The position numbers and the translations under genes are program-made. From NCBI RefSeq assembly GCF_904830925.1, contig NZ_LR882967.1:3362106-3426105 (forward strand): a stretch of DNA of 64,000 bases. The letters are read 5' to 3'. The notes beneath the pieces are model-generated. The model was not told the origin of the DNA and searched no databases. It worked only from the letters and a program-made list of their open reading frames with translations. Positions 57,163 to 62,235 of this stretch are shown here, in pieces. The stretch comes from Planktothrix pseudagardhii (GTDB lineage Bacteria > Cyanobacteriota > Cyanobacteriia > Cyanobacteriales > Microcoleaceae). The stretch's first letter is position 1. Every line of letters begins with the position of its first letter.

Positions 57163-57250
57163 ATTTGTCTGATTCTTTATTAGATTCGCTGTTAAATTTG
57201 TATAAAGAACGGGTTGATCAGATCCAAATTATACCCAAAGTGCTCAGGAA
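57163..57250. repeat. Decayed duplicate of the sqdB 3' end (compare 53862-53955)
   Basis: gattctttattagattcgctgttaaattt---gtataaagaacgggttgatcagatccaaattatacccaaagtg aligns to the sqdB 3' end gattctttgttagattcgctgttgaatttcgctattaagtataaggaacgggttgataatacccaaattatgcctaaagtc. Roughly 85% identity with a 9-bp gap. It encodes [23 protein letters not shown], like the SqdB C-terminus. Confidence 0.75.
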
Positions 57251-60200
57251 TTGGGGAAAGGTTGATAGGCTAATAGCTCTTGGGATATCAATTGTAAAAT
57301 CTGCTCTTGATGACTATCCAAAAACAGATGTTTACCATCAACCTGATGTAGCTTAAATGACTTGTTAGTATGAACGCGCCAAGCGGAAAGATGGTCTTGA
57401 TTCAAAAATTTATCCCCACAACCCACAAAGCTAGTAATAGGACAATCTAGCGGTTTTTCTTCTGTGTAAGAATAGTGATCTTTTTGGAGCACAGATGCTA
57501 CTTTCAAGGAATTTAGCAACACTTGTAAAAATGGATCATCTTCTCCAACTGAATTAGATAGTTCTATATTCGTTAAATCTTTCACGAACTTGAGTAAATC
57601 GGAGTGAGACAGGTTTTCTAAGGAAGGATAGGGATAAAGAAGTTGGGGAGCGTGTTGAGCACCGACAAAGAAATGAATCGGTTGCTTATGATGATGACGA
57701 CGCAAATAACGACACAGTTCAAAATTAATTAATGCTCCTAAACTATGACCATAAAAAGCAAATTCCAGATCAAGATAAGGTAACAAAAATTCTGCCAAAT
57801 CTGCCACTAATGGAGTCAGATACTCAAAAGTCGGTTGACTTCCAGTATATGTTTGAGGAGCAAGTCCGATAGCATAAACTTCAACATCTGGTGGTAAACG
57901 ATTTGACCAATTTTTAAACACAGAAATATCTCCTCCCCCATGAGGAAAACCGAAAAGACGCAACTTAGCATTGGGTTTTCCTTGACGATCAATAATCCAT
58001 TTGGGTGAGGTTTGTGACGGTTCTAAATTAATTAACGGTTTCTCTTTTTCTGTCAGTGATTGATTAAGATGACAATCAGATGATACTCTCATTAACTCAG
58101 ATTTTTCCTTGAGTTTTTTCAGGGAATAGAGAGAAGCCATAATAGAATCTGAATCAATTCCAAAGTCAATTAAACAAGCAATTTCATCAACTCCAATAGC
58201 TTGTAATTGTTGCACCATTAACCCACAACTTTCGGGCGTACCAATTAAAGCGCTAGTTTGAAAATAACGCTCAAAAGCATAAGCCAATAAATGTACTCTT
58301 TCTTTGGACTCCAAACCCTCCAGATTCGTAATTCCATGTCTCCACAGATTCACAGAACTTTCTAAATAAGCAGTAAATGGCTTCCTAACTTTATGGCGCA
58401 CTAAATTCATATCTTCGCCAATGAAAGTATGCAGCATCAAAGTCACTTGTCCCGCCTCTGCATCATAGCCATTTTTTGCCAATGACTCTCGATAACAAGC
58501 AATTTTTTCGGCTAATTCTTCAATGGGTTGGAACAGAAGTGCAGTTAAAACATTAGCCCCCATCGCACCCGCTTCAACAAATCTTTCTTTTCCCCCAGTA
58601 CAAGTAATCCAAATCGCTATTTCCTGTTGTTTAGGTAGGGGATAAATCCGGGTTTCAGTTTCTTTACCTATACCATTTTGTAACAAAATTGATTCACCTT
58701 GCCACAACTTCTGCACAGTTTTAATCCCGGAAAACATCACTTCTGCACTATTAGCAAATTGATTAGGCGCTAAAACAAAATCATTTGGGTTCCAACCCCG
58801 AGCAAAAGCAACATCTACACGCCCTTGGGAAAGGTTATCCACCACCGCCCACTCTTCAGCCACTCGGATAGGGTTATGTAGGGGTAAAACCACGCTACCC
58901 GCACGAATACGAATGCGATCTGTTACCATTGCCAGAGCAGAACCCAAAACCGCAGGATTGGGGTAAAGTCCACCAAAAGCATGAAAATGGCGTTCGGGTA
59001 TCCAAACTGCGCTAAAGCCATGTTTATCAGCGAATTGGCTACTTTCTATTAATAATCTGTACTTGTCATCTTTGAATTCAGCTTCGTTACTGGCAAAATA
59101 TAATAAGCTAAATTGCATCGCTTTTTTGCCAACGGGGAATGGACTGATTAACTTTTTGTGCTCCTCTTCAACCGTTGAAACTGGGTTTTCTGGATCACCA
59201 GCTAAGTGCAGCGCTAAAGATTCAATAGTCGGAAAATTCCAAACAATTGTGGCTTCTAAGGAACGTCCGAGCAATTGTTCTAAATCTTTAGCTAATTTTA
59301 CTGCTCCTATGGATTTGAGTCCATAATCCAGAAAAGATTTTCCTGATTTGCTATTGTCTGTTAATTGAATTTCTCCGGGTAAATTTTGATGCAGCCAATT
59401 GACTATCCAATTTTGAATTGATTCGGCTGTAGGAGTCAAAACCAATGAAGCTAAATCGTCAGTAGAATCAGAATTTAGAGTTGTTTTTAAATCGGGGTTT
59501 GATGGGGTTTTCAGACTATTTTGACAAGCTATTTCTGGGTTTGATACTGGGTTTGATAATGGGGTAGTTTGGTAAAAACTATTGGCATCTTGATCAAACC
59601 AGTATCGTTGTTTTTGGAAGGGATAAGTTGGTAGTAATTGCCAATTTCGAGGATAATCCCGATCAAAACCCTGCCAATCTACAGGAACTCCTTGTAAATA
59701 TAAAGTTGCTAAATTTTGCAGGAGTTGTAGCCAGTCTGACCCATCGGAACTAGCCCCCGTTAACCAAACCCCCACACCCGGATCTAAACACTCTCTACCC
59801 ATTGCTAAAAGTAGAGATTGGGGGCCTACCTCCACAAAGATTTCATAACCTTGATGATCAAGAGTTTTAATGCTATCAGCAAATCGGACTGGCTGCTGAA
59901 TCTGATTGCACCAATATTCAGGAGTTGCGATTTCTGCTTGAATGGGCTGTGCCGTAATGGGAGAAATCATCCTAATTTTTGGGGATGAATAAGTTATGGT
60001 TGAAGCAATGGGTTTAAAGGCGGTGGCAACGGGTTCCATTAAAGGAGAATGGAAAGCTAGATTGTAGTTTAACTTTCGGGTTTTAATATTATCATTTTGC
60101 AAAGTTGCGACGACGGCTTCAACTGCCTCAATTTCACCCGAAATAATGATATTTTTAGGACTGTTGACGGCTGCGATCGCCACCTTATATCGATAAGGTG

Positions 60201-62235
60201 CAATAGCAGTTTCCACCTGGGTCACATCCGCCAAAACCTCCACCATTACTCCCTGCGGCGATAAAGATTGCATTAAATGTCCCCGTTGGGCGACTAGACT
60301 GAGGGCATCTTCTAAACTAAACACCCCAGCCACACAAGCTGCTACATATTCACCCAGGCTATAACCCATAACAGCATCCGGGATGATCCCCCAAGATTTC
60401 CATAACTCAGCTAAGGCATATTCCAGGGCGAATAAAGCAGGTTGGGTATAGGCTGTTTCAGTTAATAAATGAGTGGCTGTGTTCTGATATTCTGGATATA
60501 AAATTTTTAGTAGTGGCTGATCTAAATAAGGGCGGAGAATTTCTTGGCAGCGATCTAAAATAGCCCGAAAAGTCGGTTGAGTTTCGTAGAGTTGACGACA
60601 GGAATTAAGATATTGAGTCCCCTGTCCAGGGAATAAAAATACTATTTTGGGTTGCTGACCCTTGAGCGATCGCTTTTTATCCCTTCCCAAAATATCAGTT
60701 TGATGAGCAATAGTCGCTAACTTTTCTACCAATACTGCCTGTGATTCTGCCACAACAGCTAAACGATGGTCAAAATGAGTTCTTCCGGTATTAGCACTGA
60801 AACAGAAGTCTGCTAGGGAAAAATTAGCATCACTGTTCTGCAAGTTTTCTCTATAAAGATTTACCAGGTCTAATAGTGCCTTTTCGCTCTTGGCTGATAG
60901 GGTCAGAAGATGTAGGGGACGTTCTATAGAAGCGATACTTTTCTGAGGCAATAACGGAGCTTCTTCTAAAATGACATGACAGTTAGTGCCCCCAAAACCA
61001 AAAGAACTTACTCCAGCAAATCTTGACTCTGTGCTTGAAGTCCAAGGCTCTAAAGCGGTTGGGATCGAGAAAGTTGTCCCGGCTAGAGAAATATAAGGAT
61101 TGACTTGTTTAATATGTAGATTAGGAAAAATCTGTCGATGTTGCAGAGATAGGGTTGCCTTAATTAAACTTGCTATTCCAGCCGCCGCTTCTAAATGACC
61201 AATACTACTTTTAACTGAGCCCAGCCAACAAGGTTGATCTGGTTCTCGATTTGGCATTAATATTGTTTTTAAGGCTTTATATTCAATAGCATCTCCTAAA
61301 GCCGAAGCAGTCCCGTGGGTTTCCACATAACCAATTTGATTGGGTGAGACTTCAGCATTTTCCAGCGCTTGTTGAAGCAGTCTTTGTTGAGCCAGTCCAT
61401 TAGGAGATGTAATCCCATGACTCAGACCATTATGGTTAACAGCCGACCCTCTAATAACAGCTAGAATATTATCTCTATCTTTAAGGGCATCATCAAGGCG
61501 TTTGAGAACAACAATTCCGCACCCTTCACCCCTAACAAAACCATTCGCTTCAGCATCAAAAGTTTTACAGCGACCATCAGGAGATAGCATCCCTTTGAGA
61601 GAAAGAGCAATTGATTCTTCTGGAGATAAACGTAAAGATACTCCTCCAGTAATAGCCAAATTAGACTCACCAGTGCGTAAACTCTCACAAGCTAAATGTA
61701 CAGCAACAAGAGAGGAAGAACAAGCGGTATCAATCGCTAAACTAGGCCCTTGCAAATTTAACAAGTAAGATAAGCGATTAGCTACAAAACAAAGAAATGT
61801 GTGGGGCCCATCTTCAGCATCTATGGCAGATATATCTTTATAAAGCAGTCTATTATGATCGCTTTGGCTCATGCCAATGAATACCCCTGTTTTACTACCT
61901 GCTAATGTATGGGGGACGATACCAGCATTTTCTAAAGATTCCCAAGCCACCTCTAATACCAGTCTATGATGGGGGTCTATGCGCTGGGCATCACCGACGG
62001 GAATCTCGAAAAAGTCAGGATCAAAATGATCGATATTATCTAAGAAGCCGCCCCAACGGGACACGGTTTTTCCCGGTGTACCTGCTTTGGGAGTATATAG
62101 ATCATTAATATCCCATCGCTGTATCGGGATCTCAGTGATGGCATCTAGGCCTTCCTTCAGTAGTCTCCAGAAGGATTCTATATCTTGAGCTTTGGGGAAA
62201 CGACAACCCATTCCAATTATTGCGATAGCTTCCAT
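57244..62235 (-). CDS. Type I polyketide synthase, single module KS-AT-ACP-luciferase-like monooxygenase (LLM)-thioesterase
   Basis: KS motifs ([14 protein letters not shown]; ETHGTAS; IGHLEAAAG). AT motifs ([14 protein letters not shown]; LAFHS). ACP-like segment ([12 protein letters not shown]). LLM domain ([10 protein letters not shown]...WIPERHF...[52 protein letters not shown]). C-terminal alpha/beta-hydrolase TE (FPHGGGD...[10 protein letters not shown]). Confidence 0.85.

Follow-up and report, generated by a model that had tools for sequence, protein, structure and literature searches.

Introduction

In the PuwE/microginin-type modules that build cyanobacterial beta-amino lipopeptides, a ketosynthase (KS), an acyltransferase (AT) and an acyl carrier protein (ACP) are followed in the same polypeptide by an oxygenase (Ox) and an aminotransferase, and PuwE has been assigned to the making of 3-amino-2-hydroxy acyl units. 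MupA, the namesake of an NCBIfam family of luciferase-like monooxygenases (LLM), alpha-hydroxylates ACP-bound thioesters in vitro. Bacterial polyyne clusters share a core composed of a fatty acyl-AMP ligase (FAAL), a dedicated ACP, at least three desaturases and a thioesterase (TE), and a 2021 survey assigned no polyyne cluster to cyanobacteria. Here we describe a polyketide synthase (PKS) gene of the order KS-AT-ACP-LLM-TE from Planktothrix pseudagardhii, located in a stretch of 64,000 nucleotides (contig NZ_LR882967.1, positions 3,362,106 to 3,426,105; hereafter the window). A first-pass annotation, made from the letters of the window, had taken this gene for an orphan. We find that it is not an orphan but the terminal module of a conserved lipid pathway with a FAAL, an ACP and four desaturases, and that its isolated appearance stems from the edge of the window together with an insertion sequence (IS) in the intergenic DNA.

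Domain organization of the PKS

The PKS is encoded at 57244..62235 (-) by an open reading frame (ORF) of 4992 bp and 1663 amino acids (aa) that runs without interruption in the ORF list and its translation, and the protein is an exact match to CAD5956003.1 from the 6.60-Mb chromosome of P. pseudagardhii. Both Pfam and NCBIfam return the domain order that had been read from motifs, with all matches far over their cut-offs (Table 1); Pfam additionally places a KS-AT linker at aa 379-511, while its Bac_luciferase match covers aa 1040-1351. The catalytic triad of the KS, made up of Cys172 (DTACSSS), His307 (HGTAS) and His347 (GHLEAAAG), is intact here and kept in all orthologs, which also retain the phosphopantetheine serine of the ACP and the GHSLG and His1636 motifs of the TE. 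The nearest structure to the KS-AT portion is that of CurL (PDB 4MZ0, 2e-288). For the TE, the nearest solved structures are those of the type II, hydrolytic enzymes RedJ (3QMV/3QMW), RifR and TesA, and by this comparison the domain resembles hydrolytic type II thioesterases. A domain search of the 1663 aa found no ketoreductase (KR), dehydratase (DH) or enoylreductase (ER), so extension by this module would leave a beta-keto group. Elsewhere in the window there is no second PKS gene and no nonribosomal peptide synthetase (NRPS) gene.

The gene cluster past the window edge

The closed chromosome of P. tepida PCC 9214 is colinear with the window and 99.5% identical to it over 16.7 kb, with 88 substitutions and no indels, and it carries the locus beyond the window edge. 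Past the IS lies a divergent operon that reads, in order, EamA, a PF04116 hydroxylase, GshA, a glutaredoxin (Grx, on the opposite strand), a GlcD-like FAD oxidase, FAAL (581 aa), four desaturases (Des1-4), an ACP of 90 aa and DUF302, after which come unrelated transporter genes. The FAAL, ACP and desaturase genes sit 5-11 kb past the IS in P. tepida, and they adjoin the PKS in all orthologous loci that have enough flanking sequence. The same genes occur at IS-free loci in Planktothrix sp. FACHB-1365, whose PKS is 97% identical, and in a P. mougeotii-like assembly (L087), where the start codons of PKS and EamA are separated by 239 bp and 220 bp, respectively.

These loci settle what the first-pass annotation had left as alternatives. 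It had reasoned that the KS needs an acyl-ACP donor, which the FAAL and ACP past the IS now supply, and that the remainder of the pathway was either beyond 64 kb, as the P. tepida chromosome bears out, or had been severed by the IS, which the intact spacing of 220-239 bp at IS-free loci contradicts. It had proposed a look for partner genes beyond 63.8 kb, and in P. tepida the FAAL and ACP are there, but a phosphopantetheinyl transferase (PPTase) is not part of the cluster. Loading genes past the IS with intact spacing in other strains had been named as the sign of an undisrupted cluster; in essence this is what the IS-free strains display, except that these genes begin about 5 kb past the element and not immediately beyond it.

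The cluster extends well outside this pair of strains. A metagenomic ortholog (75% identical) lies in a colinear series of FAAL, four desaturases, ACP, PKS, EamA, hydroxylase, GshA, Grx, GlcD-like and DUF302 genes, and a third arrangement was found in a cyanobacterial metagenome-assembled genome. In Dolichospermum sp. LEGE 00240 the cluster genes are split over two short contigs, orthologous desaturases are recorded in Aphanizomenon sp. CS-733/32, and P. pseudagardhii itself encodes orthologs of Des1 and Des3. A search of genome contigs for FAAL orthologs gave 80 loci, mostly unrelated FAAL clusters, of which only two (L007 and L008) were orthologous and none was listed for Planktothrix; a search with the metagenomic fourth desaturase likewise listed no Planktothrix protein, and the Planktothrix Des4 and ACP were found via Des3. 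The four desaturases are distinct paralogs with about 45-52% mutual identity, each conserved between the Planktothrix and metagenomic clusters. A simple motif scan picked up all three His boxes in three of the four, the third box of Des2 being missed; Des2 groups with cassette-type desaturases, and single-desaturase cassettes turned up among the relatives of the FAAL. Its presence in three arrangements, two cyanobacterial orders and bloom-forming genera suggests that the cluster probably makes a real lipid.

The order EamA-hydroxylase-GshA-Grx-GlcD-like is invariant in the three arrangements and across Oscillatoriales and Nostocales, with a Dolichospermum contig lacking the hydroxylase, and this invariance favors co-inheritance of the accessory genes with the pathway. 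GshA is a full-scoring cyanobacterial equivalog in NCBIfam, which led us to drop an earlier reading of this 'GCS2' gene as an amide-forming ligase, while the score of the oxidase falls slightly short of the GlcD equivalog cut-off. The gshA, CPFC glutaredoxin and GlcD-like genes are found at 3011-5989 of one P. tepida locus (L089) and also in L003, L006 and L008. Neither rubredoxin nor ferritin, the electron-transfer partners in polyyne clusters, is found among the cluster genes, where the CPFC glutaredoxin stands instead.

Table 1. Coordinates of the PKS domains, the insertion element and the flanking intergenic DNA in the window.
Feature	Position	Strand	Remarks
TE domain	57280..57960	-	aa 1426-1652 (Pfam Thioesterase); PF00975 4.8e-29; Ser1498 in GHSLG, His1636
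LLM domain, FMN-dependent luciferase-like monooxygenase	58108..59118	-	aa 1040-1376; PF00296 1.8e-40
ACP domain	59203..59340	-	aa 966-1011 (Pfam PP-binding); PF00550 2.9e-07; phosphopantetheine Ser975 in GLKSIG
AT domain	59782..60642	-	aa 532-818; PF00698 9.3e-60
KS domain	61111..62235	-	aa 1-375; PF00109 5.7e-90, PF02801 4.1e-40
Native DNA upstream of PKS ATG, 112 bp	62236..62347	-	aligns with IS-free FACHB-1365 and L087
TGGTAAAAT, extended -10-like	62312-62320	-	conserved in IS-free relatives
IS200/IS605-family element, tnpB only, ~1.43 kb	62348..63777	-	ends from empty-site alignment; PKS orientation
tnpB, 411 aa	62367..63602	-	NF040570 348 bits (cut-off 100), NF038281 397 bits
28-nt palindrome, likely subterminal right-end hairpin	62373..62400	.	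24 nt inside IS right end
Second copy of 28-nt palindrome, inside tnpB	62801-62828		encodes VETCHGTSVL just before RuvC Glu
Left-end subterminal hairpin of IS	63697..63747	.	
Native DNA on EamA side of IS, 126 bp	63778..63903	.	aligns with FACHB-1365 and L087
Start of EamA-family exporter gene, 32 codons	63904..64000	+	last 97 bases of window; translation MTITVNVPEVQTETKP... matches P. tepida EamA N-terminus

Proposed route

We consider it likely that the PKS extends and releases the chain in an uncharacterized lipid cluster of about 19 kb that operates as follows. By family membership and by the precedents of JamABC and polyyne clusters, the FAAL would adenylate a fatty acid and load it onto the free-standing 90-aa ACP, where the four tandem membrane desaturases, judging from gene content, would add several unsaturations and possibly triple bonds to the ACP-bound chain. 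The KS would then accept this chain and condense it with malonyl-ACP, with the malonyl unit predicted from the AT motifs to be loaded in cis. As the module has no reductive domains, the product should stay a beta-ketoacyl-S-ACP, whose alpha-carbon the LLM would hydroxylate using FMNH2 and O2, as its homology to PuwE and its membership of the MupA family suggest. Finally, the type II-like TE would hydrolyze the thioester and so release a 2-hydroxy-3-oxo acid that may lose CO2 to become a 1-hydroxy-2-ketone. The EamA exporter, the OlsE-like di-iron hydroxylase, the GlcD-like 2-hydroxy-acid oxidase and GshA/Grx would be co-inherited accessories; it is speculation that they guard the producer against a thiol-reactive product or oxidize the 2-hydroxy acid.

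A more ambitious version, which we put forward tentatively and regard as doubtful, is that this is the first cyanobacterial pathway of the polyyne type, in which a conjugated, thiol-reactive polyunsaturated chain made by the four ACP-dependent desaturases gains one ketide, is alpha-hydroxylated and is released, with GshA, Grx and the exporter protecting the producer. If this were true, a polyyne-type pathway in bloom-forming Planktothrix, Dolichospermum and Aphanizomenon would encode an unrecognized allelochemical or toxin.

Several observations weigh against the elongating route. The genes past position 64,000 are those of the sister P. tepida genome (L001, L089) and not of the window's own record, and neither a flavin reductase, a PPTase nor a rubredoxin is found among the cluster genes. 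GshA and the GlcD-like protein could be mere housekeeping neighbors. The Planktothrix survey of Pancrace et al. (2017) lists PPL2 and PPL3, PKS-like clusters of P. tepida, as orphans with no significant database similarity. LLM-TE cassettes occur in proteins that have no KS, and hence a beta-keto substrate is not required for their function. The active-site motif of the AT carries a Tyr where GHSxG usually has a His (GYSLGE), and the loss of AT elements in orthologs, considered below, makes extension by cis-loaded malonyl uncertain.

The acyltransferase and the question of elongation

In the window, the AT keeps GQGTQ, GYSLGE at aa 624 (Ser626), Arg651 and LAFHS at aa 726 (His729). The malonyl-type AT proposed by the first-pass annotation stands as far as GYSLGE and LAFHS are concerned, but the domain is degenerate in several orthologs and its role is less certain than was assumed. 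Erosion of the AT is seen in four of them (P0004, P0005, P0006 and L087), with KS, ACP, LLM and TE intact in all. The catalytic Ser has become Cys in the colinear metagenomic ortholog, while in a branch with 57% identity it has become Gly and a deletion of about 85 aa has taken out the catalytic His. The P. mougeotii-like PKS (L087) has gained a small palindromic repeat and has a deletion of about 62 aa that removes LAFH with the frame kept. In these AT-eroded relatives, either malonyl is supplied in trans or the module works without extension, and the recurrence of the erosion in otherwise intact orthologs poses a small, testable puzzle on extender-unit supply.

The second of these options is the main alternative to the elongating route, and we judge it unlikely. 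Here the AT would be vestigial, the KS would only transfer the desaturated chain from the free ACP to that of the module, the LLM would hydroxylate C2, and the TE would free a 2-hydroxy polyunsaturated fatty acid of the same length as the starter. The AT losses in orthologs that include a Planktothrix relative speak for such a module, and MupA-type hydroxylation in trans-AT systems does employ a non-elongating KS. Further support comes from the company that the LLM-TE pair keeps. When 1.84 billion representative proteins were scanned in full, this didomain proved uncommon but not unique: it ends FAAL-ACP-LLM-TE and FAAL-ACAD-ACP-LLM-TE proteins, thus standing directly behind FAAL-ACP, and is also found alone, and one FAAL-ACP-LLM protein bears an LLM 72% identical to that of the PKS. 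The pair looks like a general release cassette that alpha-hydroxylates and then hydrolyzes. Against a non-elongating module, the Cys-His-His triad is kept in the KS of every ortholog. Non-elongating KS0 domains are usually without the decarboxylation His. The AT of the window, moreover, retains each of the motif residues listed above; GYSLGE also accompanies a normal HAFHS in other PKSs, and orthologs with a defective AT could obtain malonyl in trans from FabD. We retain the elongating route as the preferred reading for the PKS of the window.

Some further observations concern these domains. Proteins in which LLM or LLM-TE either stands alone or is fused directly to FAAL-ACP, in some cases with an acyl-CoA dehydrogenase (ACAD) domain as well, were met at L009 9123-12512 and as P0320, P0322, P0324 and P0321; they look like a family of one-protein makers of 2-hydroxy fatty acids, on which our literature search turned up nothing. 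At 8550-24000 of L005, the 57%-identical KS-AT(dead)-ACP-LLM-TE gene belongs to a different cluster, which also contains one desaturase, an ACP, a B12-radical SAM protein, A-PCP-TE, DUF2000, a GCS2-like ligase, another TE and a FAAL; a fragment of TnpB is nearby. In the AT region of L087 (about 560-720), an insertion of about 66 bp is flanked by AGAAACCCGGTTTCT-type palindromes and the catalytic His is gone; a miniature repeat has here remodeled a PKS domain while leaving the gene unbroken. Between the window and P. tepida, substitutions in the PKS are not evenly spread but bunched at 59671-59968 and 60925-60949, in the KS-AT linker and AT, which hints at a local recombination tract.

The insertion element between PKS and EamA

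The tnpB element that had been noted upstream of the PKS is confirmed by NCBIfam and Pfam as a member of the IS200/IS605 family, and it lies within what is, in IS-free FACHB-1365, a 239-bp divergent promoter region. The empty site of FACHB-1365 and L087 reads ...AAGTATTTTA|AGAGGCAT..., which places the insertion after ...AAGTATTTTA(A), i.e. TATTTTA(A), and comparison with these empty sites reveals no target duplication. The element was thought to occupy the roughly 130 bp between the PKS start and the tnpB stop; the gap is indeed 131 bp, but only 19 bp of it belong to the IS and 112 bp are native. TnpB carries OrfB_IS605, HTH and Cas12f1-like TNB domains in Pfam and the RuvC motifs GIDLG, AVEDL and HDRDINAS; it is an exact match to CAD5956022.1 and has a 90%-identical paralog (P0467). 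No tnpA gene (Y1 transposase) was found in the IS, which is filled by tnpB with 176 bp at the left end and 19 bp at the right end, and since its length leaves no room for tnpA, the IS is a non-autonomous, tnpB-only derivative of IS200/IS605. The perfect 20-nt core AGACGTGCCATGGCACGTCT of its palindrome has exactly two copies in the 64 kb, both within the IS. We considered and dropped the reading of the 28-nt palindromes in tnpB as recent insertions of miniature inverted-repeat transposable elements: the 90%-identical paralog keeps the internal copy, and they are features of the element itself. An Rfam scan of 62000-64000 for an omega RNA (reRNA) or any other RNA returned one chance miRNA match only, although an omega RNA need not be represented in Rfam.

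The insertion is a benign, intergenic one that interrupts no coding sequence. The IS sits at the identical site in P. tepida PCC 9214, and that both strains have it and both retain an intact PKS ORF argues that it is tolerated. An alternative, which we find quite improbable, is that the locus has been silenced or is decaying: the IS would have cut the PKS off from its promoter, and the unusual AT would mark a pseudogene in the making. It is true that the IS splits the divergent promoter region, that a TATAAT on the PKS strand is now on the far side of the element, that the AT is eroded in relatives, and that IS elements are known to have rearranged peptide clusters in Planktothrix. Yet the ORF is uninterrupted with all catalytic residues present, and both strains that share the insertion have kept it whole. 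The native DNA still upstream of the PKS also includes the conserved TGGTAAAAT, which at the level of a motif hints at a retained PKS promoter. A consensus scan for promoters and terminators gave no excess over the shuffled expectation and is not used as evidence; the same scan found no terminator-like site between tnpB and PKS, and because tnpB runs in the same direction as the PKS with no such site between them, read-through from tnpB into the PKS is possible.

Chemistry of the LLM domain

The assignment of the LLM domain held up on a hidden Markov model search. The domain matches TIGR04020, the MupA/Atu3671 family of natural-product LLMs, at 493.9 bits (cut-off 244.45) over model positions 1-341 of 341, and it matches the oxygenase domain of PuwE (PDB 6KET) at 1.4e-125 over the full length. 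Because of its closeness to the PuwE domain and its place in the MupA family, FMNH2-dependent alpha-hydroxylation appears likelier than Baeyer-Villiger chemistry. On-line flavin oxygenation before release, as the first-pass annotation had suggested, is thus upheld in its hydroxylating form, but the Baeyer-Villiger option that it also named is disfavored by this homology. Type II Baeyer-Villiger monooxygenases are found within the luciferase-like superfamily, and a beta-keto thioester could serve as their substrate, but Baeyer-Villiger-type oxygen insertion or oxidative C-C cleavage is very improbable here, the nearest characterized relatives both being tied to alpha-hydroxylation and a PDB search having given no closer match to a known Baeyer-Villiger LLM.

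Other features of the window

The other genes of the window are ordinary cyanobacterial ones, including CemA, BFA1, RtcB, RTX/cadherin giants and STAND NTPases. Next to the PKS, 55091-57061 (+) encodes a 656-aa protein of no family, with a weak match to the C-terminal repeat of phage T4 gp5; many of the positions at which P. tepida differs from the window lie inside it, clustered periodically, and its FACHB-1365 version has 592 aa. Two adjoining giant proteins of 2155 and 1211 aa with RTX, cadherin-like and bacterial Ig repeats are encoded at 11072-21320 (-). A row of STAND/NACHT-type NTPases, together with a CHAP-RTX protein and a Ser/Thr kinase bearing TPR repeats, spans 42474-50147 and may be a defense or signaling island.

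Comparison with known systems

Our literature search found no paper on this cluster or on an LLM-TE release module, and a search for a cyanobacterial polyyne cluster or a fischerellin cluster produced nothing matching. Among described systems, the PuwE/microginin-type module is alike in that a FAAL and a free ACP feed one non-reducing KS-AT-ACP with an embedded LLM, and many of the best relatives of the PKS have the KS-AT-ACP-LLM-aminotransferase layout. The locus described here differs in having no aminotransferase and no downstream NRPS, so that the chain ends at a TE as a released lipid and is not bound in a peptide. Its starter is processed by four desaturases. Its AT is variant here or eroded in the family, whereas the aminotransferase-containing relatives among the best matches have GHSxGE. 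MupA belongs to the same LLM family (TIGR04020) and likewise oxygenates an ACP-bound thioester during assembly, but it is free-standing and recruited to a KS0-ACP bimodule of a trans-AT PKS, while the LLM of this cis-AT module is fused between ACP and TE.

On the starter side, the core of the polyyne clusters for caryoynencin (cay), protegencin (pgn), cepacin and collimonin, whose tandem membrane desaturases work on the ACP-bound chain, is matched by the FAAL, the 90-aa ACP, the four FA_desaturase proteins and a TE that is here a domain of the PKS. There are four desaturases in place of three and a glutaredoxin in place of rubredoxin or ferritin, and the TE forms part of a PKS module that would add an extension and an alpha-hydroxylation; the bonds made by the desaturases may be double or triple. 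The JamABC alkyne cassette of jamaicamide and its relatives, of a type that feeds cyanobacterial PKSs, similarly sets a FAAL, a desaturase and an ACP directly upstream of a KS, although it has one desaturase where this cluster has four paralogs, and it feeds a long assembly line where this cluster has a single terminating module. At the opposite end of the chain, the CurM and Ols terminal modules, arranged ACP-sulfotransferase-TE, also hold a tailoring domain between the last ACP and the TE; they carry out sulfonation and decarboxylative elimination, in contrast to the flavin-dependent hydroxylation predicted for the PKS of the window, which has no KR. The domain families are all known, and what appears new, judging by the papers found, is their combination, with a FAAL/ACP starter system and four tandem desaturases feeding one KS-AT-ACP-LLM-TE module.

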